Part shown: positions 20,852 to 50,675 of the stretch, one piece after another
How the letters are laid out: the number at the start of each line of letters is the position of its first letter
Position numbering within the stretch: position 1 is the stretch's first letter
Assembly (NCBI GenBank): GCA_963729625.1
Contig: CAVSOU010000010.1
Location: 128,001-192,000, forward strand
Length of the DNA: 64,000 bases
Source of the DNA: an uncultured bacterium
GTDB taxonomy: Bacteria; Chloroflexota; UBA5177; JANWHV01
Direction: 5' to 3'
Translations under genes and position numbers: made by a program
Notes under the pieces: model-generated
Database searches by the model: none
Seen by the model: the letters and a program-made list of their open reading frames with translations, nothing else
What the model was told of the DNA's origin: nothing

Positions 20852-21310
20852 ATGGTAAAGGTCGTATTGAACAAGGACGTGGCAAATCTGGGCAAGGCGG
20901 GAGAAGTCAAGGATGTCTCTCCTGGCTACATGCGCAACTTTCTCATTCCGCAGGGCCTCGCGGTGCTTGCCACGTCCGGCGCGCTGAAGTCGCTGGAAAC
21001 GCGGCGGTCGCAAATTATCAAGGCGCACGAAAAGGCGCGTTCCGATGCGCAATCGCTGGCCTCACGTCTCGCTGACGTCTCGCTCGTGTTCCAGGTACGA
21101 GTAGGCGAGCAGAACCGTCTCTACGGATCGATCACGAGCAAAGATATCGCGGATGAGTTGGCGCGCGCTGCCGAGATCACCGTTGATCGACGTGATATCG
21201 AGCTACCGGAGGCACTCAAGACCCTGGGCAACTACAGCGTACCGGTGCGATTGGGCCACGACGTTAAGGCTTCCATCAACGTTACGCTGCAGGAGGCGGC
21301 CTCCGCTTGA
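20852..21310 (+). CDS. rplI: 50S ribosomal protein L9
   Basis: DVANLGKAGEVKDVSPGYMRNFLIPQGLA and RLYGSIT. Confidence 0.97.
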   Translation: MVKVVLNKDVANLGKAGEVKDVSPGYMRNFLIPQGLAVLATSGALKSLETRRSQIIKAHEKARSDAQSLASRLADVSLVFQVRVGEQNRLYGSITSKDIADELARAAEITVDRRDIELPEALKTLGNYSVPVRLGHDVKASINVTLQEAASA

Positions 21311-21312
21311 TC

Positions 21313-22656
21313 ATGGAGACACTCGCGGCTGGAGGCGAAGAGCATCTACCGCGCAGTCTAGAAGCTGAACAGGCCGTCTTGGGCAGTCTGCTTCTTGATC
21401 CCGATGCCATCATCGAAGTTACCGCGATTTTGCGACCGGATGACTTCGCGCATGATGCCCATGCAGTTACCTACCGCGTCATGGTCGACCTGTACGAGCA
21501 GCGCCGACCGGTAGACGTTATTACCGTCCTGGAGGAGGTCGAACGCCGCGACCTCCTTCAGCGCGCCGGCGGTAGGGGTTACGTGCTTTCGCTGGTCGAC
21601 GTCGTACCCACTGCCGTCCACGTCGAGCACTACGCGCGGATCGTGGAGCGACTTGCGGTTCTTCGCCGGCTGATACGTGCCGGTGGCCAAATTGTCAGCA
21701 TCGCTCAACGCGACGGCGTCGAGGTCGAGGAGGCGCTGAACGATGCCGAAGAAGTACTGTTTGCCGTGGCCCAGGGCAGGAGCAGCGCCGGCTTTGTGCC
21801 GATTCGCGAGGTGCTTACAACGATCCTCGAGCAGGCCGACTACGTACACGAACACCGCGGAGCCATCCTCGGCACCCCCACCGGTTTCGTCGATCTTGAC
21901 AAGATTCTGGGCGGGTTGCAGCGTTCGGACTTGATCATCGTCGGCGCCCGGCCTGCGCATGGCAAGACCGCTCTGGCCCTTGGCATGTGCCATAATGCTG
22001 CTGTGCGGTTCAAACAGCGGGTTGCCCTTTTTAGCCTGGAAATGTCAAAGGAGCAGCTCGTGCAGCGCTTGTTGTGTATGCAGGGCAGACTCGACAGCGG
22101 GCGCCTGCGGTCCGGCTATATTGACGAGGCAGAGTGGGGCAGGTTGATCGAGGCTGCGGGCGTCCTGTCTGAAACACGCATCTTCATCGACGATTCAGCC
22201 GGGATTACTCCCGCTGAGATGCGCAATCGTGCGCGCAGGTTGCAGGCCGAGCAAGGACTGGACCTCATCGTGGTCGACTACCTGCAGCTGATGTCGGGCC
22301 GAGCGTCCGAGAATCGTGTGCAGGAGATCAGTGGGATCTCTCGCGCTCTCAAGATTCTTGCCCGCGAGCTGAACGTGCCGGTGGTCGCTCTCTCGCAGGT
22401 GTCCCGCGGTGTGGACTCGCGTACTTCGCACGTTCCGCTGCTCTCGGATCTGCGCGAGAGCGGCAGTATCGAGCAGGACGCCGACGTCGTACTATTCCTT
22501 TGCCGTGAAGAAATGTACGATCCCGAGACCGAAAAGCAACACATCGCCGATCTCTATGTGGCCAAACACCGTAACGGGCCGACCGGGCAGCTTTCGCTGT
22601 ACTTTGACAAAGTTCAGACTCGATTCCGGGACCTTGAGGCCCGCGCGCCGCTATGA
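21313..22656 (+). CDS. dnaB: Replicative DNA helicase
   Basis: EAEQAVLG, GARPAHGKT, VVDYLQLM, SDLRESGSIEQDAD, KHRNGPTG; no intein. Confidence 0.97.
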   Translation: METLAAGGEEHLPRSLEAEQAVLGSLLLDPDAIIEVTAILRPDDFAHDAHAVTYRVMVDLYEQRRPVDVITVLEEVERRDLLQRAGGRGYVLSLVDVVPTAVHVEHYARIVERLAVLRRLIRAGGQIVSIAQRDGVEVEEALNDAEEVLFAVAQGRSSAGFVPIREVLTTILEQADYVHEHRGAILGTPTGFVDLDKILGGLQRSDLIIVGARPAHGKTALALGMCHNAAVRFKQRVALFSLEMSKEQLVQRLLCMQGRLDSGRLRSGYIDEAEWGRLIEAAGVLSETRIFIDDSAGITPAEMRNRARRLQAEQGLDLIVVDYLQLMSGRASENRVQEISGISRALKILARELNVPVVALSQVSRGVDSRTSHVPLLSDLRESGSIEQDADVVLFLCREEMYDPETEKQHIADLYVAKHRNGPTGQLSLYFDKVQTRFRDLEARAPL

Positions 22657-23387: not shown

Positions 23388-24141
23388 GTCCGCGCCGGTC
23401 TGCGATCGATGTGGAGGCGCTGGCTACCTGCGCCTTGACGTGCCGGTGGACGATCCCGGCTTTGGTACGATCGTGCCGTGCGGCTGCAAGGAGCGCGAGA
23501 TTACCGAGCGTCGGATGCAGCGCCTGCTCGAGAAGTCGAACCTGCGCGCTCTCTCAAGCATGACCTTCGAGTCGTTCCTCGTGGACGCGCCGCAGCGCAA
23601 CGCCTTCAAGCGCGCGCAGCAATATGCAGCCAATCCCGATGGCTGGCTCGTGATCATGGGCGGCTATGGTACAGGCAAGACCCATCTTGCCGCGGCTATC
23701 GGCAACTATCGGCTGGCAATGGGCGCGCCCGCCCTGTTTATGGTCGTTCCGGACCTGCTTGACCACCTGCGCTCGGCGTACGCACCTGGTAGTGAGCTGG
23801 GATATGACGACTTCTTCGAAGGAGTTCGCGAAGCCCCTCTTCTTATCTTGGACGATCTCGGGACCCAGATCAGTACCCAGTGGGCGACGGAGAAGCTCTA
23901 CCAGCTCTTTAATCACCGCTATATCCACCGCCTGCCAACGGTGATCACGACGAACAGCTCGCTCGACGAGATTGGCGGCCGGCTTGCCTCGCGGATGTCG
24001 GACCCCGTGATAAGCACCTGCGTGACGATCGATTCGCGCGACTTCCGAGGCGGTGTTGGCGATTCGGACGAGCCTGGCTCGTCGGCTTCACGGCAAACCC
24101 GGCGCCGGCCACGCGGCATCGAATATACCGACCGCCCCTGA
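23302..24141 (+). CDS. dnaC: DnaC/IstB-like helicase-loader ATPase
   Basis: Zn motif CDRC..CGC, Walker A GGYGTGKTHLA, LILDDLG, VITTN. GTG start at 23302 overlaps the dnaD-domain gene. Confidence 0.88.
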   Translation: MESIGDILKRLEIRRNTPEGDTATSSNRESAPVCDRCGGAGYLRLDVPVDDPGFGTIVPCGCKEREITERRMQRLLEKSNLRALSSMTFESFLVDAPQRNAFKRAQQYAANPDGWLVIMGGYGTGKTHLAAAIGNYRLAMGAPALFMVVPDLLDHLRSAYAPGSELGYDDFFEGVREAPLLILDDLGTQISTQWATEKLYQLFNHRYIHRLPTVITTNSSLDEIGGRLASRMSDPVISTCVTIDSRDFRGGVGDSDEPGSSASRQTRRRPRGIEYTDRP

Positions 24142-24162
24142 CAGTACCGGCTGCGAACGGGT

Positions 24163-24192
24163 TTGACACAGTGGCTTCCCGACCAAGATACT
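24163..24192 (+). promoter_or_regulatory. Candidate sigma70 promoter for the uORF-secDF transcript
   Basis: Perfect TTGACA, 18-nt spacer, GATACT. Confidence 0.5.
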
Positions 24193-24257
24193 AGTGAGGA
24201 CTGGATGAGCAGCCTGCGGCGGCAGCAATCCGCGCGGTTCGAGGTAACTGAAACCTG

Positions 24258-24701
24258 ATGGGTGTGCGTTCCGTACCGTCGATATTGCGCACACTTGCTA
24301 TCTTCGTCGCTTCGCTCCATGCGACTGGCGGTGGCCTTGGCAGTGTGGTCGAAGCCCATGACCTCAGGCACGCGCCGGCGCAGCCCGTCGTACGAACCGA
24401 TGTGGCAGAACCAAGCTCGAGAACCGGCGCAGACGAGATCGCCGGCCAGACGTTACTGTTTGCCACCGCCGAACTGTCCTCACCGTCTCTACCAGGCTCT
24501 GTCGTTCGCCCTTTCGATTCGTCGCCGGTGCTGGCGCCTGGGCGGCGACCGATGGCCAGAGACCCGCGCTCGGCTCATTCCGCACAACAGGAGCCGCTAG
24601 CGCGCCAGGTCCGTGCGACCCAGCCGACTGTCGTTGAGTGGCTGGACATTGTCCTGACTTCAAGTCCAGCGAACGACCCACAGCGTATTCGCGCTCCGTA
24701 G
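24258..24701 (+). CDS. Putative secretion-monitoring translation-arrest peptide upstream of secDF (ends QRIRAP-stop)
   Basis: Signal-peptide-like N-terminus, low-complexity spacer, C-terminal IRAP resembling RAPP/RAGP arrest motifs, position directly before secD, adjacent anti-SD hairpin. Confidence 0.7.
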   Translation: MGVRSVPSILRTLAIFVASLHATGGGLGSVVEAHDLRHAPAQPVVRTDVAEPSSRTGADEIAGQTLLFATAELSSPSLPGSVVRPFDSSPVLAPGRRPMARDPRSAHSAQQEPLARQVRATQPTVVEWLDIVLTSSPANDPQRIRAP

Positions 24702-24703
24702 TC

Positions 24704-24811
24704 CGTCTCCTCCCAGTACGCGATGGCGTCCGGCAGCGTGGCCAGGCTCAATTGCGCCCAAGCTGCTCGGCCGAGTCCATACTCTTCACGTAGCACACTG
24801 AGAGGTAGACG
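24704..24811 (+). promoter_or_regulatory. Stem-loop predicted to sequester the secD Shine-Dalgarno sequence
   Basis: CGTCTCCTCCCAGT (24704-24717) pairs with ACTGAGAGGTAGACG (24797-24811): 13 bp, one mismatch, one bulge, covering GAGG. Confidence 0.7.
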
Positions 24812-24812
24812 C

Positions 24813-26213
24813 ATGCGTCAGCGAGCCCAACTATTCTTGATAGGGATTATCGTCCTGACATTCGCCGCCGTCCTGGTAGACCTTGCCGGCACGGTAGGCA
24901 ACTTTAAGGTTTTCGGTCACGGCACGGCGATCCATCAAGGTCTGGACCTCACAGGCGGCCTGAGCATGGAACTGAAGGCGACCGACCATAAGGCCGCCAC
25001 GAGCGATGCCATGGCAGCCGCGATTGACATCATCACCAAGCGCGTCAACGCCTTTGGCGTGTCCGAGCCGATCGTAACGCAGCTTGGAAGTGACGCGATC
25101 GATGTCGAGATGCCTGGCGTCAGGGATCCGGAGGTCGTGCGCCAGACGATCGGCAGCACTGGCCAGCTCGTTCTCTACGGGATGGGCAGCCTGACCCCAC
25201 TGCAGGACGGCGCCACGTTTCCTTACTCAAACACGACCACGCTCTGTGATGCCAAGAACGCGCCGACTCCGTGCGTGGTCATGAAAGGAAGCGAGCTCGA
25301 TTCGAGCCAGATCGCGAATCAGTTCGATCAGTACGGCCAGCCAATAGTAACATTTGGCGCGAAGGGCGGCGCCGTCGGCCGCCTTGGGACTTACACGACC
25401 GACCACGTCGGGGAATACATGGCGTTTGTCCTCGACGGGAAAGTGGTGACCGATCCCAAGATCCAGTCGGCTATCACCGGCGGGAACGGTGAGATCAACA
25501 ACATCGGCAGCAGTGACACCGCCAAGGCCATTGCCATTCGTCTCAAGTACGGCGCGCTGCCCATCGCCTTCACACCGGAAGCCAGCAGCCAGATCAGCGC
25601 CACGCTGGGATCGCAGTATGTCCATGACAGCATAACCGCCGCCATCGTCGGCATTATCGTGGTTATGTTCTTCATGGTCGCGAATTACAGGCTGCCGGGA
25701 CTCGTTGCCGACATTGCACTGTTGATCTACACGTCATTAGCATTCGCAGTGTTCAAGCTCTGGCCGTTCAGCGGCAGCGGCGCCAGCGGCATCACGCTCA
25801 CGCTGGCCGGAATCGCCGGGTTCATCCTCTCGATTGGTATGGCGGTTGACGCAAACGTGCTCATCTTCGAGCGGCTAAAAGAGGAACTGCGTACGAACAA
25901 GACACTCGGAGCTTCTATCGAAGCCGGGTTCAATCGCGCGTGGACGAGTATTCGGGACTCGAATGTGAGCACGATCATCACCTGCTGCGTGCTGTATTGG
26001 TTTGGCCAGAATTACGGCGCGACCGTGATCGCGGGTTTCGCCACTACGCTCGGCATCGGCGTAGGAGTATCGATGTTCACGGCGATCGTGATCACGCGCA
26101 CGTTCCTGCGCGCACTCGTGCGAAGCAACAGCAGCTATCACCCGAAGTGGTTTGGCGCCGGTCTGGAGAACGTCAGTCCACAGACGCGGCCGACCAAGGG
26201 AGGGCAGGGCTAA
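24813..26213 (+). CDS. secD: Protein translocase subunit SecD
   Basis: GLDLTGG, RVNAFGVSEP, LKYGALP, LSIGMAVDANVLIFERLKEE, DSNVST; GAGG SD before ATG 24813. Confidence 0.97.
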   Translation: MRQRAQLFLIGIIVLTFAAVLVDLAGTVGNFKVFGHGTAIHQGLDLTGGLSMELKATDHKAATSDAMAAAIDIITKRVNAFGVSEPIVTQLGSDAIDVEMPGVRDPEVVRQTIGSTGQLVLYGMGSLTPLQDGATFPYSNTTTLCDAKNAPTPCVVMKGSELDSSQIANQFDQYGQPIVTFGAKGGAVGRLGTYTTDHVGEYMAFVLDGKVVTDPKIQSAITGGNGEINNIGSSDTAKAIAIRLKYGALPIAFTPEASSQISATLGSQYVHDSITAAIVGIIVVMFFMVANYRLPGLVADIALLIYTSLAFAVFKLWPFSGSGASGITLTLAGIAGFILSIGMAVDANVLIFERLKEELRTNKTLGASIEAGFNRAWTSIRDSNVSTIITCCVLYWFGQNYGATVIAGFATTLGIGVGVSMFTAIVITRTFLRALVRSNSSYHPKWFGAGLENVSPQTRPTKGGQG

Positions 26214-26259: not shown

Positions 26260-27306
26260 ATGATTAACATCATCAGGTATCGCTACTGGTATTTCCTGTT
26301 CTCGCTGTTGATCATCGTTCCTGGTTTCGCGTTCTTCCTAGCGGGAGGGCTGAAGCTCGGAATCGACTTTACGGGCGGCACAGAGCTCACGCTGCGGTTC
26401 AGCACGGTCCAGGCCAGCGCACACCTGGAGGATCAGATTCGTAGCGCGGTGATCAGCGGCGCCAAGCTAAGCGAAGCGGAGGTGATTTCGTCGACGCCTC
26501 TCGGCGGCGCAGCAAACAACGGCGCCCACTATCTCGTGCGCATTCCATTCATTGGCGACTCGCCGCAGAAGCTGGCGGCCGTCCTGGCGCCGCTCTATCG
26601 CGAATACGGTTGCGGCTCGCTCGTGAAGACCACGGCTCCCGGGCTTTACAAGGTGCCATTGCCCACCTGCAAGAACTTGGCGCTCGAGCAGGAAACCGAC
26701 GTCGGCGGCGCAATTGGCTCGCAGATTCGTTCGCGCGCCGCGACAGCGGTGGTCATCGCCGCCGCGTTCATCCTGCTGTATATATCCTTTGCCTTCCGCA
26801 AGGTGGCTCACCCGTTCCGCTACGGAACGTGCGCCATCATCGCATTGCTGCACGACGTTCTGGTGGTCATGGGGCTTTTCGCAATCTTTGGCAGGGCGCT
26901 CGGCGTGACCGTGGACTCGTTGTTTGTCACGGCCGTGCTCACCGTTATCGGTTTCTCGGTGCACGATACAATCGTTATCTTCGACCGAATTCGTGAGAAT
27001 ATGGCGCGCCGTATCGGCGAGCCCTTCGAGCTTGTCGTCAACAACGCCATCCTTCAGTCGATGGCACGCTCGTTGAACACGTCGCTGACCGTGCTGATGA
27101 CACTGACCGCGCTCTTGCTGTTCAGTGGGGCCAGTATCCGGATTTTCGTCGTGACGCTTCTTATAGGAATTACAAGTGGGACATATAGCTCGATCTTCAA
27201 TGCGAGCCCACTCTTAGTAGTGTGGGAGAACGACGAGCTAGGGATAGGCAAGTTTCTTCAGCGGTTCAGGAGGAGCAAGACCGGGCGGCCGGCTACCGCG
27301 CGTTAA
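26260..27306 (+). CDS. secF: Protein translocase subunit SecF
   Basis: LGIDFTGG, ALLHD, IGFSVHDTIVIFDRIREN, RSLNTS, GTYSSIF. Confidence 0.97.
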   Translation: MINIIRYRYWYFLFSLLIIVPGFAFFLAGGLKLGIDFTGGTELTLRFSTVQASAHLEDQIRSAVISGAKLSEAEVISSTPLGGAANNGAHYLVRIPFIGDSPQKLAAVLAPLYREYGCGSLVKTTAPGLYKVPLPTCKNLALEQETDVGGAIGSQIRSRAATAVVIAAAFILLYISFAFRKVAHPFRYGTCAIIALLHDVLVVMGLFAIFGRALGVTVDSLFVTAVLTVIGFSVHDTIVIFDRIRENMARRIGEPFELVVNNAILQSMARSLNTSLTVLMTLTALLLFSGASIRIFVVTLLIGITSGTYSSIFNASPLLVVWENDELGIGKFLQRFRRSKTGRPATAR

Positions 27307-37108: not shown

Positions 37109-38231
37109 CTATTCTGCCATCTGGGCGCGGAGAAACGCTCCCATGAACGGATCGAGGTCTCCATCCAGCACTCCGTAGACGTCTGTAGTCTCATGACCGG
37201 TTCGTTCGTCCTTGACAGCAGTATACGGATGCAAAACGTAAGACCGATCGCGGTTACCGAAGTTGGCCGCGATCGGCTCTCCTCGGAGTCGTGCCTGCTC
37301 TTCTTCGCGGCGGTGCAGCTCAATATCGAGTAACTTTGCCTGAAGGATTGTCATAGCAACCTGGCGATTCTGCAATTGAGACCGTTCGTTTTGGCAGGTC
37401 ACCACGATTCCCGTGGGCAAGTGCGTGAGGCGGACAGCAGACGACACCTTGTTGACATTCTGCCCACCAGCCCCCGTCGACCGGTAATGATCTTCTCGGA
37501 TATCCTTGGCGTCGACGACGATTTCAGGCGCGCCTTCATCGATCGCAGGCAGGACCTCCACTGCAGAAAAACTTGTCTGGCGGCGATGGGCGGAGTCAAA
37601 CGGCGACAGACGGACCAGTCGATGACTGCCGCGCTCGGACAGCAGATACCCGTATGCGTAGAGTCCATCTATCTCGATTGTGGCGTTCTTGAACCCGGCT
37701 TCTTCACCCTCGGTACTCTCGATTAGCTCGGCCTTGAATCCGCGGCGCTCGGCCCATCTGAGATACATGCGGGTGAGCATCTCTGTCCAGTCCTGCGCGT
37801 CGACACCTCCTGCGCCGGTTGTAATGGTGACCACCGCGTTATGGTCTGAGTACGGCCTGTCAAGCATCAAATCGAGCTCGCCTTTGTCCAGGTCCTGCCC
37901 GACCTCTTCGACCTGGCCAGCTACCTCCGCCAGGAAGCTCACATCGCCAGTCGCGAGCTCTGCCATATCGGCAAGCTCGCGGAGATGCGTCGACATTGCC
38001 TCCCAACTGCTGAGCTTCTGCTTGAGCACGGTAAGCCGCTGCAGAACGCCGGCCGCATGCTTCGGATCATTCCAAAGCGCGCCGTCAGACGCCTGCCGCT
38101 CGAGATCTTCGATTTGCGCGCGTTTTCCGGGTGCGTCAAAGACGCACCAATAGGCCTTCGAGGCGCGCTCGAAGTGCCCCTATCTTCGACTGAACTTCCT
38201 CTTGCGAGAGGATTCTGCTAGCTTCGACCAT
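37109..38231 (-). CDS. prfB: Peptide chain release factor 2, translated through a programmed +1 frameshift
   Basis: ORF1 from ATG 38231 (MVEASRILSQEEVQSKIGALRARLEGLLVRL) ends CTT TGA C at 38141-38135. The +1 frame carries SPF and GGQ. Confidence 0.95.
38135..38150 (-). promoter_or_regulatory. prfB +1 frameshift site TTGGTGCGT-CTT-TGA-C
   Basis: Canonical CTT TGA C slippery site with an SD-like GGTG 3 nt upstream. Confidence 0.92.
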
Positions 38232-40905
38232 GGCACTGCTTGTACTTCCTACCGCTTCCGCACGGACACGGATCGTTGCGGCCGACTTTGGACGACGGGC
38301 CGGTTGTCTTTGGCGCGCCCATGCTTGTTCGAGTCATCGGGCCCTCCGAGCGCACGACCTGCCGAGCAGCCGGGCTGGCGACGGCGCTTGCCCCCATAGC
38401 CGCATCGGGTGAATGAGGACCGCTTGCGATCGCGGACATGGTGGTCGGCGGCGCGAACGTCGGCATAGGGGGTGGCGGCGGCTGTTGCTGCACTTCGAAT
38501 TGATAAATCACGTGCACTACCTCATGGCGAATCATCTCCTGCAGGTCGCCAAACATAACCGACGCGGTCTTGCGGAACTCTACCAGTGGGTCGCGCTGAC
38601 CGGCGGTTTGGAGCTGAACGCCTTCCCGCAGCTCGTCGAGGGCGTCGATATGCTGAATCCAGCGCCGATCGATAATCGACAGCAGGATGAATCGCTCCAC
38701 CTGGCGCACGATCTCGGAGCCAATTCGCTCCTCCCGCCGCTCATAGGCGAGATCGGCCTCGTCCAGGACCTCCTGGATAACGTCAGCCTTCTTCTGCGCT
38801 CGAATGTACGTGTCGTTGAACTCTGGCGGAGCAGGGAATACAGCGCCTAGCGCCTTCAGCATGCCGTCGACATCCCAGTTGTCGGCATACGTGTCCGCGA
38901 GATGGATTTCCGCGATGCTCGTAAGCTCCTCGTGCACCATCTGGATGATAATGTCGGAGACATCCTCACCTGCCAGGATTCGCTGCCGATCGGCGTAGAT
39001 AACGGCACGCTGGCCTGCTATCACATCGTCATACTGGACAAGGTACTTGCGAGCGTCGAAGTTCCAGCCCTCGACCTTCGTCTGCGCGCTTTCAATGCTT
39101 CGGCTGACCATGGTGTTCTCGATGGGCTCGTCGTCTGGCAAACCAAGCCTGTCGAGAATGCCCTTCACGCGGTCCGATCCCACGCGTCGCATGAGGTCGT
39201 CCTCAAGCGACACGTAGAAGCGAGAGGATCCCGGGTCACCTTGCCGGCCCGATCGTCCTCGAAGCTGGTTGTCGATCCGACGTGACTCGTGACGCTCGGT
39301 GCCGATAATATGAAGGCCGCCGACACCAACAACCCCTTCGCCAAGCTTGATGTCCGTGCCTCGGCCAGCCATATTCGTCGCGATGGTCACAACGCCGCGC
39401 TGTCCGGCCCTTTCCACGATCGCGGCTTCGCGTTCGTGCTGCTTGGCATTGAGCACGCTATGGGCAACGCCGGCGCGAAGAAGCAGCGTAGATAGGAGCT
39501 CCGACTTCTCAATCGACGTGGTGCCGACGAGAACGGGTTGGCCGATCTCTTGCTTCTGCTTGATTGCCTGGACGACCGCATTGAACTTCGCCGCTTCCGT
39601 CTTGAAGACGATGTCGTTCATATCCTTGCGAATCATCGGCATGTTCGTGGGAACAGCCACCACGTCGAGCCGATAGATCTTGAGGAACTCCTCCTGCTCC
39701 GTGGTCGCCGTGCCGGTCATTCCGGCCAGTTTCTTGTAAAGGCGGAAGTAGTTCTGGAAGGTAATCGTGGCCTGGGTAATGTTCTCGCGTTCGATGCGGA
39801 CGCCTTCCTTGGCCTCCAGCGCCTGGTGCAACCCCTCGCTGAACCGCCTTCCCTCGAGCGCGCGCCCCGTGAACTCGTCGACTATTATCACCTTGCCGTC
39901 GCGAACGAGGTAATCCTTATCGCGCTTGAAGATGGCGTGCGCCTTCAAAGCCTGTTCGAGGTAATGGGCCAGCTCGTAGTTCTTCTCGTCATAGATGTTC
40001 TCGACGCCAAGCAGACGCTCCATGTGCGTGATTCCGCTTTCGCTCAGCGTCACTGCCCGCATCTTATGATCGACTTCGTAGTCGTCACCTTCGCGCAGTT
40101 TCGGCACTAGCCGCGCGAAGTGATAGTACGTCTCCGCGGACTCCTCAGCCTGGCCGCTGATGATCAGCGGCGTCCGCGCTTCGTCGATCAGGATGTTGTC
40201 GACTTCGTCGACGATACCGTAGGCCAGTGGCCGCTGCACGCATTGGTCGAGCGACTGGGCAAGGTTGTCACGCAGGTAGTCAAAGCCGAATTCGTTATTC
40301 GTGCCGTAGAGGATGTCCGAGTCGTAGGCTTCTTTCTTGGTGGTCGGACGAAGATGACGAAGGCGTTCGTCAGTGGGATGCTCGTCGGTGTAGTCCGGGT
40401 CGAACGCAAATGACGTGTCGCCGGCCCCTCCGCTTGAAATAATGCACCCCGTCGACACCCCGAGCAGATTGAATATTCGGCCGTTCCATCCGGCATCACG
40501 GCGGGCCAGATAATCGTTGACAGTAACCAGGTGCACGCCCTCGCCGGTAAGTGAATTCAGGTACGCAGGAAGCGTGGCGACCAGTGTCTTACCCTCGCCT
40601 GTCTTCATCTCGGCGATCTTGCCGGCATGAAGCACGACCCCGCCGACAAGCTGAACGTCAAAAGGGCGCTGGCCGAGCGTCCTCCGCGCAGCCTCGCGCA
40701 CATTCGCAAACGCTTCTGGCAGCAGGTCGTCAAGACTCTCGCCGTCCTTGTAACGCTGGCGCAGCTCATCAGTTTTCTCGGCGAGCTGCGCGTCCGACAA
40801 CTCGACAAAGCCAGGCTCGAGCTCGTTAATTTCGTCGACGACCGGTTGGATCCGCTTGAGCTCCTTTTCGTTTGGATCTCCGAGGATCTTGGTGAACCAG
40901 GGCAT
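38218..40905 (-). CDS. secA: Protein translocase subunit SecA
   Basis: EMKTGEGKT, VDEVD, ATNMAGRGTD, QLRGRSGRQGDPG, SEC-C GRNDPCPCGSGRKYKQCHG; AAGGA SD before ATG 40905. Confidence 0.98.
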   Translation of the reverse strand: MPWFTKILGDPNEKELKRIQPVVDEINELEPGFVELSDAQLAEKTDELRQRYKDGESLDDLLPEAFANVREAARRTLGQRPFDVQLVGGVVLHAGKIAEMKTGEGKTLVATLPAYLNSLTGEGVHLVTVNDYLARRDAGWNGRIFNLLGVSTGCIISSGGAGDTSFAFDPDYTDEHPTDERLRHLRPTTKKEAYDSDILYGTNNEFGFDYLRDNLAQSLDQCVQRPLAYGIVDEVDNILIDEARTPLIISGQAEESAETYYHFARLVPKLREGDDYEVDHKMRAVTLSESGITHMERLLGVENIYDEKNYELAHYLEQALKAHAIFKRDKDYLVRDGKVIIVDEFTGRALEGRRFSEGLHQALEAKEGVRIERENITQATITFQNYFRLYKKLAGMTGTATTEQEEFLKIYRLDVVAVPTNMPMIRKDMNDIVFKTEAAKFNAVVQAIKQKQEIGQPVLVGTTSIEKSELLSTLLLRAGVAHSVLNAKQHEREAAIVERAGQRGVVTIATNMAGRGTDIKLGEGVVGVGGLHIIGTERHESRRIDNQLRGRSGRQGDPGSSRFYVSLEDDLMRRVGSDRVKGILDRLGLPDDEPIENTMVSRSIESAQTKVEGWNFDARKYLVQYDDVIAGQRAVIYADRQRILAGEDVSDIIIQMVHEELTSIAEIHLADTYADNWDVDGMLKALGAVFPAPPEFNDTYIRAQKKADVIQEVLDEADLAYERREERIGSEIVRQVERFILLSIIDRRWIQHIDALDELREGVQLQTAGQRDPLVEFRKTASVMFGDLQEMIRHEVVHVIYQFEVQQQPPPPPMPTFAPPTTMSAIASGPHSPDAAMGASAVASPAARQVVRSEGPMTRTSMGAPKTTGPSSKVGRNDPCPCGSGRKYKQCHGRS

Positions 40906-41396
40906 CAGCCAGTCCTTATGAACGGCAAGCGACAGCGCTTGGCAGTGACTTCGCAAAGCATTCGCGGCATGGGCTAGTCTAGCACACAGTCCATGTCGGG
41001 ACAACGAAATGATACGTCCTGCGGAGCTTACGTGGTGCGATAATCAGTCTCACCGATGCAAGACTGGGCTTCCTGCCCGAGTGGTGCGATTCCAATCCGT
41101 GGATGACATACCTCTTGCTGGGAACGCTTGAAGGTGGCACTATGCTGTCAGCGTGCCGCTACAGAGCGCAGTGGGCTTCATAGAGTTTGAAGCGACTTGA
41201 TGCGGGTATGCCTAGTGGTGCTGGAGAAACTCGAATAGCGTGTCAAGGCTGTCGATAGCGTGTCTCACGATTGCAGGCGCACAGACATCTCAGAGGTATC
41301 GCGCTGTCGGCGCCCGTTGTCCGCCTCGTGGACGACGGGGAACATACGATCGAATCCTCGTCGCTCCGCATGTGGTCAGCGCGTGATTGAGGTGGA

Positions 41397-49069: not shown

Positions 49070-49579
49070 ATGATCGATGAAGAGGCCAATCTGCACGAGC
49101 TGGCCGCGGCGGTCGCCGGCGCGGCGATGAGGTCTGCCACAGCCATCTGCACTGCCGAATCCTGCACTGGAGGCGCATTGGCATATCTGCTCGCCCAGGT
49201 GCCGGGCGTGTCGGCGGTGTTCCAGGGCAGTGTTGTCGCGTATGCCAATATCGCGAAGGTCGAGATCCTTGGTGTGCCTGTGTCGGTGCTCGATGCCTAC
49301 GGAGCCGTAAGTGAACAAGTTGCGCGAGCGATGGCCAGGGGCGCGTGCCGCCGTTTGCATGCGTCGGTAGGCGTATCTACCACCGGTATCGCCGGCCCTT
49401 CAGGCGGCACTGACGCAAAACCCGTTGGGCTCGTCTATATCGCCGTCTACGGCCCGGACATCGACGTCGTCACTGAGTTCCGCTTTGCTGGTGGGCGTGC
49501 AGCGGTGATACGTCAGGCAACGCGCGAAGCGTTGCACGGTCTTGAGCGGGCTCTCTCAGCGCGGTCCAATTGTGTTTAG
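49070..49579 (+). CDS. cinA: CinA C-terminal domain protein (PncC-type NMN deamidase)
   Basis: TAESCTGG, GAVSEQVARAMA, STTGIAGPSGG..KPVGLV. Confidence 0.92.
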   Translation: MIDEEANLHELAAAVAGAAMRSATAICTAESCTGGALAYLLAQVPGVSAVFQGSVVAYANIAKVEILGVPVSVLDAYGAVSEQVARAMARGACRRLHASVGVSTTGIAGPSGGTDAKPVGLVYIAVYGPDIDVVTEFRFAGGRAAVIRQATREALHGLERALSARSNCV

Positions 49580-49590
49580 GGCTGAGGCCA

Positions 49591-49619
49591 TGGTATCATA
49601 GATTCTAGAACGCACGTTC
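49591..49619 (+). promoter_or_regulatory. recA promoter (extended -10 TGGTATCAT) with LexA box GAAC-GCAC-GTTC
   Basis: Perfect GAAC-N4-GTTC at 49608-49619, just downstream of the -10 and upstream of the recA SD. Confidence 0.85.
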
Positions 49620-49637
49620 AAGGAAAGGTAAGAATAC

Positions 49638-50675
49638 GTGGCCGTTGCAACTCAGCAATCGGATCGCGACAAGGCACTCGAAACAGCCATGGCCCAGATT
49701 GACCGCCAGTTTGGCAAGGGTGCGATCATGCGCCTTGGCGAAGTCACCAAGATGAATATCGAGGCCATACCGACCGGGTCGATCGCACTCGACCTCAGCC
49801 TTGGCATCGGTGGCGTTCCGCGTGGGCGCATTATCGAAATCTTTGGCCCTGAGTCTTCTGGAAAAACGACATTGGCCCAGCACATCCTGGCAGAATCACA
49901 GCGGATGGGTGGCGTTGTTGCCTATGTCGACGCCGAACACGCGCTCGATCCGCAATACGCAGCGCGATGCGGCGTCAATGTGAATGACATGCTCATCTCG
50001 CAACCAGATACCGGTGAACAGGCTCTCGAGATCGTGGACGTGCTGGTTCGTAGCGGCGCAGTCGACGCAATCGTTGTTGATTCGGTTGCCGCGCTCGTGA
50101 CCCGCGCTGAGATCGAAGGCGATATGGGCGACGCGCACGTGGGCTCACAAGCGCGCCTGATGTCCCAGGCGTTGCGGAAGCTGGCCGCCGCCATCAGCAA
50201 GTCGAACAGCCTCGTGATTTTCATCAATCAGTTGCGCGAAAAGATTGGCGTCGTGTATGGCAATCCCGAAACTACGCCTGGAGGCAAGGCGTTGAAGTTC
50301 TACGCTTCTGTCCGTCTGGATATTCGTGCAATCGACCAGATCAAGCAGGGAACTGAGTCAATAGGCAGGCGCGTGCGCGTCAAGATCGTCAAGAACAAGG
50401 TCGCTCCCCCGTTCCGCGTCGCGGAGTTTGATCTCATGTACAACGAGGGGATTTCCAAGGAAGGTGGACTCCTGGACGTTGGCCTCGAGCTTGGCATCCT
50501 GAAGAAGAGCGGCGCCTTCTACTCCTTTGGCGACACAAAGCTTGGCCAGGGGCGGGAGAACGCCAAGGAGTTTCTCCGGCAGAATCAGGACATGCGAGAC
50601 GAAATCGATCGCCTGATTCGCGCCAACGTGGCGAATTTCCACGCGCCTCTGATCCCTGACACTTTGACCGACTGA
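49638..50675 (+). CDS. recA: Recombinase RecA
   Basis: [38 protein letters not shown]. Confidence 0.99.

Follow-up and report, generated by a model that had tools for sequence, protein, structure and literature searches.

Introduction

Feedback on the Sec and YidC machinery by arrest peptides is patchy in distribution but widespread. In several such systems, a ribosome stalled on an upstream open reading frame (uORF) opens an RNA stem-loop that masks the next gene's Shine-Dalgarno (SD) sequence. Stem-loops of this kind are described for secM-secA, mifM-yidC2, vemP-secDF2 and uDF_RQH_Enterobacterales-secDF2 (PMC10987492). For secM-secA, exposure of the SD sequence by the stalled ribosome is established (PMC10987492, PMC7897499). 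In uDF_RQH_Enterobacterales-secDF2 of Alteromonas naphthalenivorans, stem-loop 2 was verified using stem-disrupting mutations and a premature stop codon (PMC10987492).

Other arrest peptides contain the residues R-A-P. Briefly, the RAPP-like, or RQH, peptides ApdA and ApdP are encoded upstream of secDF, and ApcA upstream of yidC. A proline in the A site is needed for, or contributes to, their stalling (PMC10951233). According to Sakiyama et al. 2021 (PMC7897499), structure prediction gave no SD-sequestering hairpin for ApcA, ApdA or ApdP. RAP-stop (RAP*) and RAPC are among the motifs of uORFs that cluster with ApcA (Fujiwara et al. 2024, PMC10987492, Methods). For Rhodothermales and UBA7662, which both belong to Bacteroidota, the supplementary code of the same paper gathers secDF uORFs with a RAP or RGP ending. 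The class uDF_NAP-stop, also upstream of secDF, stalls with a stop codon in the A site (PMC10987492). A 2026 preprint on LudP describes an arrest peptide able to stall both elongation and termination.

The term 'Chloroflex' is absent from the main text of PMC10987492 and of PMC7897499. In the supplements of PMC10987492, it occurs only in the list of screened genomes; this statement covers the 12 files searched, with files 6 and 9 outside the set. Our literature search found neither the uORF family described below nor a Chloroflexota arrest-peptide case. Here we analyse a window of 64,000 nucleotides from an uncultured member of the Chloroflexota. A sequence-only reading had proposed that a uORF upstream of secD encodes an arrest peptide, and that a hairpin masking the secD SD sequence is melted by the ribosome stalled at the uORF stop codon.

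Results

A uORF precedes secD and secF

On the plus strand, the gene order is rplI, dnaB (21307-22656), a DnaD-like gene, a DnaC/IstB-like gene (to 24141), the uORF, secD and secF. Genes xseB and xseA lie on the opposite strand to uORF-secD-secF. The uORF and secD are co-oriented, with a gap of 111 nt, and secF is the next gene. Weak consensus scans found neither promoter-like nor terminator-like sites between the uORF and secD. Coordinates are listed in Table 1. The sigma-70-like candidate promoter is 66 nt 5' of the uORF start. A GAGG sequence belonging to the uORF itself (24240-43) is 14 nt ahead of its ATG, a long spacing for an SD sequence.

Table 1. Features of the uORF-secD-secF locus, in window coordinates.
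Feature	Position	Strand	Remarks
Candidate promoter, TTGACA-18-GATACT	24163..24192	+	Weak consensus match; 1 site against 0.2 expected in shuffles; candidate operon promoter
uORF, 147 aa	24258..24701	+	From ORF list; without Pfam family; candidate Sec monitoring substrate (arrest peptide)
R-I-R-A-P codons and stop UAG	24684..24701	+	Proposed stall: CCG 24696-98 in P site, UAG 24699-701 in A site
Outer 5' pairs	24692..24700	+	In MFE folds; inside last codons and stop of the uORF; absent from the sequence-only reading
5' arm (anti-SD), CGUCUCCUCCCAGU	24704..24717	+	CCUC 24709-12 pairs with SD
Spacer within stem, 79 nt	24718..24796	+	Local hairpins 24718-29, 24730-70 and 24773-84
3' arm, ACUGAGAGGUAGACG	24797..24811	+	Holds secD SD GAGG 24802-05; spacing to AUG 7 nt
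secD, 466 aa	24813..26213	+	Pfam SecD_1st, SecDF_P1_head, SecD_SecF_C
secF	26260..27306	+	Pfam SecD_SecF_C, Sec_GG; ATG 26260 preceded by GGGGGA

In an alignment of 17 SecD sequences, M1 and R2 encoded from ATG 24813 are conserved at 90% or more, and homologues at 85-89% identity have the same length. The best named SecD relatives are proteins from Chloroflexota metagenome-assembled genomes. The uORF, the 111-nt spacer and secD share one reading frame. The sole stop between them is TAG 24699-24701, and the spacer comprises 37 sense codons.

The uORF family has conserved ends

The uORF product ends PQRIRAP, and TAG follows. Three homologues of exactly 147 aa share 49-51% identity. A profile search of 1.84 billion representatives yielded three more of 146, 155 and 154 aa, at 45%, 27% and 27% identity, respectively. 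In all seven proteins, R143, R145, A146 and P147 (RxRAP) are invariant, even at 27% identity. Conservation concentrates at the two ends of the protein, with residues 1-26 (MxxRxxPxxxRTxAIFxAS...) containing 12 of the 19 invariant columns (n=7). The 35 or so residues ahead of RxRAP (about 107-140) vary freely among the same seven. The N-terminus is hydrophobic and signal-like, but its core is short, at about 9-10 residues. The 9-mer of highest hydropathy is TLAIFVASL (residues 12-20), with R4 and R11 before it and HATGGG after. Five of the seven members end RAP-stop, and the two most distant (P0126 and P0127, both at 27%) run on as RAPC plus 6-8 residues. As a lead only, pyrimidine-rich codons resembling CUCC might specify the residues that follow RAP in these two proteins (EVIS, PSP).

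These features recall two described classes. Like uDF_NAP-stop of Bacteroidota, the family combines a signal-like N-terminus with A-P directly followed by a stop (5/7 members) and, in the window, secDF downstream. The phylum differs, as does the residue at -3, which is N in the tested uDF_NAP-stop member and R here. With the RAPP-like peptides, the uORF shares R-A-P, with proline in the P site at the proposed stall, and a place upstream of Sec/YidC genes; its signal-like N-terminus may correspond to their localisation signal. The RAPP-like motif itself is incomplete: the family has RAP, followed by a stop in 5/7 members and by Cys in 2/7. Both of these endings are known as variants of the ApcA cluster. 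The canonical RAPP-like mechanism has Pro- or Gly-tRNA in the A site, whereas UAG would occupy it here. Hence, RAP-stop cannot use that exact mechanism, and arrest would take a related but non-identical route.

Relatives of the locus in other genomes

Genome scanning with SecD alone as the query found no relative. With the 17-sequence SecD alignment, at least 80 loci were found, with identity of at most 63% by best matching segment. Full-length SecD matches were 34-55% identical among the matches listed, and the closest of these loci, at 53-55%, were from Chloroflexia. The source genome probably has no close relative in the species-representative genome set. None of the 80 secD loci, among the matches listed, carried the uORF. 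Comparing four uORF proteins with these loci by tblastn gave a best E of 0.17, and comparing the spacer by blastn gave a best E of 0.095. In the first 45 of the 80 listed loci, open reading frames upstream of secD were YajC-like or unrelated only. A regular expression for RAP-type C-termini matched 17 times in the 80 listed loci, never just upstream of secD. Turning to RNA families, comparison with Rfam produced no hit, either for 23500-25500 with E values as high as 1 or for the whole window at the gathering score.

The secD SD sequence is paired in predicted folds

The hairpin had been described as CGTCTCCTCCCAGT (24704-24717), separated by TC from TAG 24699-24701, pairing with ACTGAGAGGTAGACG (24797-24811), ahead of ATG 24813. 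All of these strings and coordinates are correct, including the onset of the stem 2 nt 3' of the stop codon of the conserved uORF. The core helix comprises 13 bp with one bulge (U24806) and one mismatch (C24713/A24801). Briefly, there are three segments: CGUCU 24704-08 with AGACG 24807-11 (5 bp), CCUC 24709-12 with GAGG 24802-05 (4 bp) and CAGU 24714-17 with ACUG 24797-800 (4 bp). When 24690-24830 was folded, this helix appeared in the MFE structure as well as in the centroid, and folding 24600-24900 gave the same outcome. Pair probabilities were computed in contexts of 141, 211, 341 and 693 nt. Across the four contexts, sampled internal core pairs had P = 0.97-1.0, and the pairs of the CCUC-GAGG segment had P of at least 0.99. 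The basal pair 24704:24811 was less certain (P = 0.65-0.97), and the apical pair 24717:24797 had P = 0.87. Masking of the SD sequence was thus borne out in prediction, with P(unpaired) for GAGG at 0.001 in every context.

Further pairs lie outside the core. In the MFE folds, 24697-24700, the last two bases of the proline codon and UA of the stop, pair with 24814-24817, UG of the AUG and CG. Bases 24692-95 pair with 24820-23. In these folds, part of the secD start codon (ATG 24813) is thus engaged with the region around the uORF stop. The probability of the outer pairs varies with context, at 0.07-0.96 for 24697:24817, 0.57-0.93 for 24700:24814 and 0.001-0.67 for 24692:24823. An apical extension of the stem, 24717-23 with 24786-92, had also been suggested. 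The two stretches are complementary on paper (6 bp, one mismatch), but they are not part of the dominant structure (P 0.16-0.20). Enforcing the extension costs 1.3 kcal/mol (MFE -51.8 against -53.1), making it a minority alternative.

Is the helix more than chance?

The region is 60% GC, and its total folding energy is not unusual. For 24690-24830, the z-score was -1.75 and 7/200 shuffles folded equally well; for 24600-24900, the values were -0.81 and 23/100. The arms themselves stand out more. With 31-nt arms, the duplex energy was -27.7 kcal/mol, matched by 347 of 18,248 same-spacing window pairs on both strands (1.9%). For the core duplex, at -18.5 kcal/mol, the corresponding figure was 213 of 18,248 (1.2%). 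Shuffling the 5' arm (5,000 times each) gave duplexes as good in 0.7% (31-nt arms) and 1.2% (core) of cases. A search for ungapped inverted repeats did not report the stem because the bulge and mismatch split the arms into runs of 5, 4 and 4 nt.

We then compared ribosome-binding sites by the cost of forcing positions -18 to +6 single-stranded. Control starts came from a crude ORF and SD rule that gave an SD-led start in 32 of 45 ORFs and dropped 13; some are probably wrong, since 37870(-) lies inside prfB and 34924(-) inside an FtsA-like ORF. The secD site costs 17.8 kcal/mol to open, third among the 32 SD-led starts in the window, for which the median is 11.25 kcal/mol. Its SD sequence has the lowest P(unpaired) of the 32, a tied rank. 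Starts of secD could be scored in 78 of the 80 loci from other genomes, among the matches listed. Only one of these 78 crudely called starts was as costly to open, and one of 26 when GC content was at least 0.55. We also shuffled the spacer alone (24702-24794, n=291), keeping the uORF end and the ribosome-binding site. The native opening cost was reached by 11 of the 291 shuffles. Taken together, the hairpin is genuine, holds up across the predicted folds and departs moderately from chance.

A modelled ribosome at the uORF stop partly relieves the block

The modelled ribosome had CCG 24696-98 as its P-site codon and UAG as its A-site codon, and pairing was forbidden from -15 to a variable 3' limit. 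Numbering takes the first base of the P-site CCG (24696) as +1. With 341 nt folded, the secD site took 18.5 kcal/mol to open without the ribosome, and 15.4, 14.0 and 11.4 kcal/mol with it for limits of +11, +13 and +15, respectively. The last value is close to the window median. With the P site at earlier positions on the uORF tail, the cost changed by about 2 kcal/mol or less. By the usual exponential scaling of energy with initiation, the relief might amount to a roughly 10-fold effect. In the spacer shuffles, no sequence matched the relief by a ribosome on the stop codon: native values were 6.1 and 7.3 kcal/mol, against shuffle maxima of 5.4 and 5.5 (0/291).

Hence, the prediction that a ribosome on UAG lowers the barrier to secD initiation holds in the model, but full release of the SD sequence does not. 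At a limit of +13, GAGG was still paired (P unpaired 0.009), and release required 24710 (+15) or beyond to be open. From +15 onwards, even with the arm fully open, P unpaired for GAGG was only 0.26-0.28 because ACUCUUC 24781-87 partly recaptures the SD sequence. This segment is the main alternative SD partner once the 5' arm is held open, though a weaker one (P 0.2-0.6). It may provide a second, weaker layer of masking.

The geometry is borderline in the model. A duplex can begin about +11 to +13 at the mRNA entrance, and toeprints fall at about +16. The 5' arm runs from +9 to +22. Its CCUC, the partner of the SD sequence, takes up +14 to +17, where the mRNA channel ends or farther out. In the sequence-only reading, the greater part of the arm was placed within the ribosome footprint. 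In fact only 5 of its 14 nt (to +13) or 7 of 14 (to +15) are inside.

As a positive control, E. coli secM-secA (NC_000913.3) was put through the same pipeline, which recovered the known anti-SD helix. Positions -16 to -9 of secA pair with 802-808, which are +5 to +11 when counted from the P-site codon for Gly165. The secM arm is therefore wholly inside the ribosome, and the candidate anti-SD sequence lies 8-9 nt farther downstream. Yet the modelled relief for secM-secA (11.3 to 9.2 kcal/mol) is smaller than for secD here.

Finally, each of the 32 starts was scanned with a virtual footprint of 28 nt at 13 positions upstream. Relief peaked at 8.0 kcal/mol for recA and 7.7 for secD, followed by 6.8 and 6.5 for two other starts that are probably mis-called; the remaining 28 gave 4.9 or less. 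The hairpin had been said to support the arrest model independently of the peptide motif. This is too strong: 3 of the 31 other starts in the window show similar relief, so the hairpin indicates coupling to a ribosome at the uORF end rather than arrest.

Discussion

A putative Sec-monitoring switch

Taking the hairpin together with the signature of the uORF, we favour, as somewhat probable, a Sec-monitoring switch like that of secM-secA, in which the hairpin would serve as output module and termination would be arrested at RAP-stop. This draws on the helix and its robustness, the conservation pattern of the uORF, the gene order and the modelled relief. Briefly, the uORF, secD and secF would probably be co-transcribed. 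In free mRNA, the long-range helix 24692-24717 with 24797-24823 would bury the secD SD sequence and part of the AUG; hence, initiation of secD-secF is proposed to be low. Translation of the uORF would yield a product with a signal-like N-terminus and an RxRAP C-terminus, on which the ribosome may arrest at RAP-stop. The stalled ribosome would keep the outer pairs from closing, along with the 5 bp at the base of the core and possibly the first bases of CCUC. The opening cost would then fall by about 4.5-7 kcal/mol, to roughly the window median, and secD could initiate, so being derepressed in vivo. Active Sec would pull the nascent chain and release the arrest, and the helix would re-form.

Several observations weigh against such a switch. 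The CCUC sits at the channel edge, the folding energy is unremarkable, the duplex falls only in the 1-2% tail and similar relief occurs at three other starts. In addition, RAPP peptides need an A-site proline, two uORF members continue as RAPC, the hydrophobic core is short and the uORF is missing from the 80 listed secD loci.

The likeness to secM-secA consists of a uORF with an export signal (putative here), a C-terminal motif of R-A-x-P type and a helix that pairs the downstream SD sequence near the stall site. The target differs, being secA for secM and secDF here. SecM arrests in elongation (Gly165 in P, Pro166 in A), four codons ahead of its stop codon, whereas arrest is proposed here at the stop itself. 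The secM stem has a short loop in place of the 79-nt insert, and the two loci have no sequence homology. The same stem logic applies to uDF_RQH_Enterobacterales-secDF2, mifM-yidC2 and vemP-secDF2, but these are elongation arrests with unrelated peptides. An SD-sequestering helix, which the parts of PMC10987492 cited here do not describe for uDF_NAP-stop, is predicted at secD. It is predicted clearly, in contrast to ApcA, ApdA and ApdP.

Alternative explanations

Plain translational coupling, without regulated arrest, would also use the helix. A ribosome finishing the uORF would transiently melt it, and secD expression would track uORF translation; alternatively, the terminating ribosome would re-initiate at an AUG held beside the stop by the helix, RAP being kept for another reason. 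Relief arises only once the ribosome reaches the last uORF codon, and the stop and start codons pair in the same helix, as coupling would have it. Coupling by unmasking also appears ordinary in this genome, given the 3/31 other starts with similar upstream-footprint relief, such as recA behind cinA. Against this, 111 nt is a long gap for coupling, and a ribosome in passing frees no more than the stem's base. Moreover, RxRAP that is invariant at 27% identity, a conserved signal-like N-terminus and secDF downstream make up the signature published for monitoring substrates (PMC10987492). We consider coupling alone unlikely. Less likely still is a chance helix in GC-rich intergenic RNA, with secD translated in spite of the helix or from a transcript begun within the spacer. 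The unexceptional total folding energy, the 1-2% or so of same-geometry window pairs that are equally stable and the 11/291 spacer shuffles with as high an opening cost would all fit. Chance accounts poorly for ribosome-dependent relief that none of the 291 shuffles reached, for a helix that pairs exactly the SD sequence from 2 nt after the stop of a conserved uORF, and for pairs robust to folding context. The lack of a promoter-like site in the spacer points the same way, although this is a weak test.

A structure that works independently of the uORF ribosome is very improbable. It might be an RNA thermometer, a stabilising element, a site for RNase III or processing, or the target of a protein or sRNA controlling secD, and a long imperfect helix with a structured 79-nt insert could serve in such roles. 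Nothing specific points there, and ribosome-dependent opening better explains both the placement flush with the uORF stop and the stop-start pairing. We reject, as scarcely credible, stop-codon readthrough that would fuse the uORF, spacer and secD. The frame would allow it: 24258, 24702 and 24813 are all 0 mod 3, and 24702-26210 translates without a stop. However, at 60% GC it is common for 37 codons to pass without a stop. SecD relatives start MRQR and are 455-466 aa long, and a search for N-extended or fused SecD spanning the spacer gave one match, P0002, covering 54% of the query and its SecD part only. The two distant uORF homologues stop 6-8 codons past RAP, and a signal peptide ahead of SecD TM1 would upset topology.

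Implications of the proposed switch

Returning to the Sec-monitoring switch, the joint reading goes further, and we hold it tentatively, as a possibility that falls somewhat short of probable. In the uORF product, Chloroflexota would gain its first described Sec monitoring substrate, a RAP-stop peptide blocking RF1-dependent termination at UAG. Its stop codon would be paired with the secD start codon in one long-range helix, so that the arrested ribosome opens the base of the helix and the rest, which contains the SD sequence, can then be opened. Among RAP-type arrest peptides, it would also be the first to come with a clear SD-sequestering helix. If true, the locus would offer a tractable model for control of downstream genes by RAP peptides, a matter left open for ApcA, ApdA and ApdP by Sakiyama et al. 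2021. It would extend the principle of arrest-peptide feedback to another phylum, and contribute a RAP-stop example, upstream of secDF, whose SD-masking helix is clean and testable. With the anti-SD sequence at the footprint edge, it also raises the question of how much of the helix a stalled ribosome must cover for derepression.

Other features of the window

Gene secA (38218-41004, minus strand) is 12 kb away. Its translation probably begins downstream of the listed TTG start, and MPWFTKILG... seems to be the true N-terminus. We searched 41005-41396 on the minus strand, upstream of secA, for a secM-like uORF with a signal and an arrest motif; none was convincing. The recA start at 49638 (49070-50672, plus strand), which gave the largest modelled relief, did so with the footprint ending 32 nt before the start. 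The model suggests that recA is translationally coupled to cinA (49070-49576). The ATG of prfB overlaps the end of secA. Gene prfB, encoding RF2, has an apparent classical programmed +1 frameshift (38100-38240, minus strand): a 31-codon ORF (38231-38136) ends ...CGT CTT TGA C, and the RF2 body, with PCRF and RF-1 domains, is in the +1 frame.
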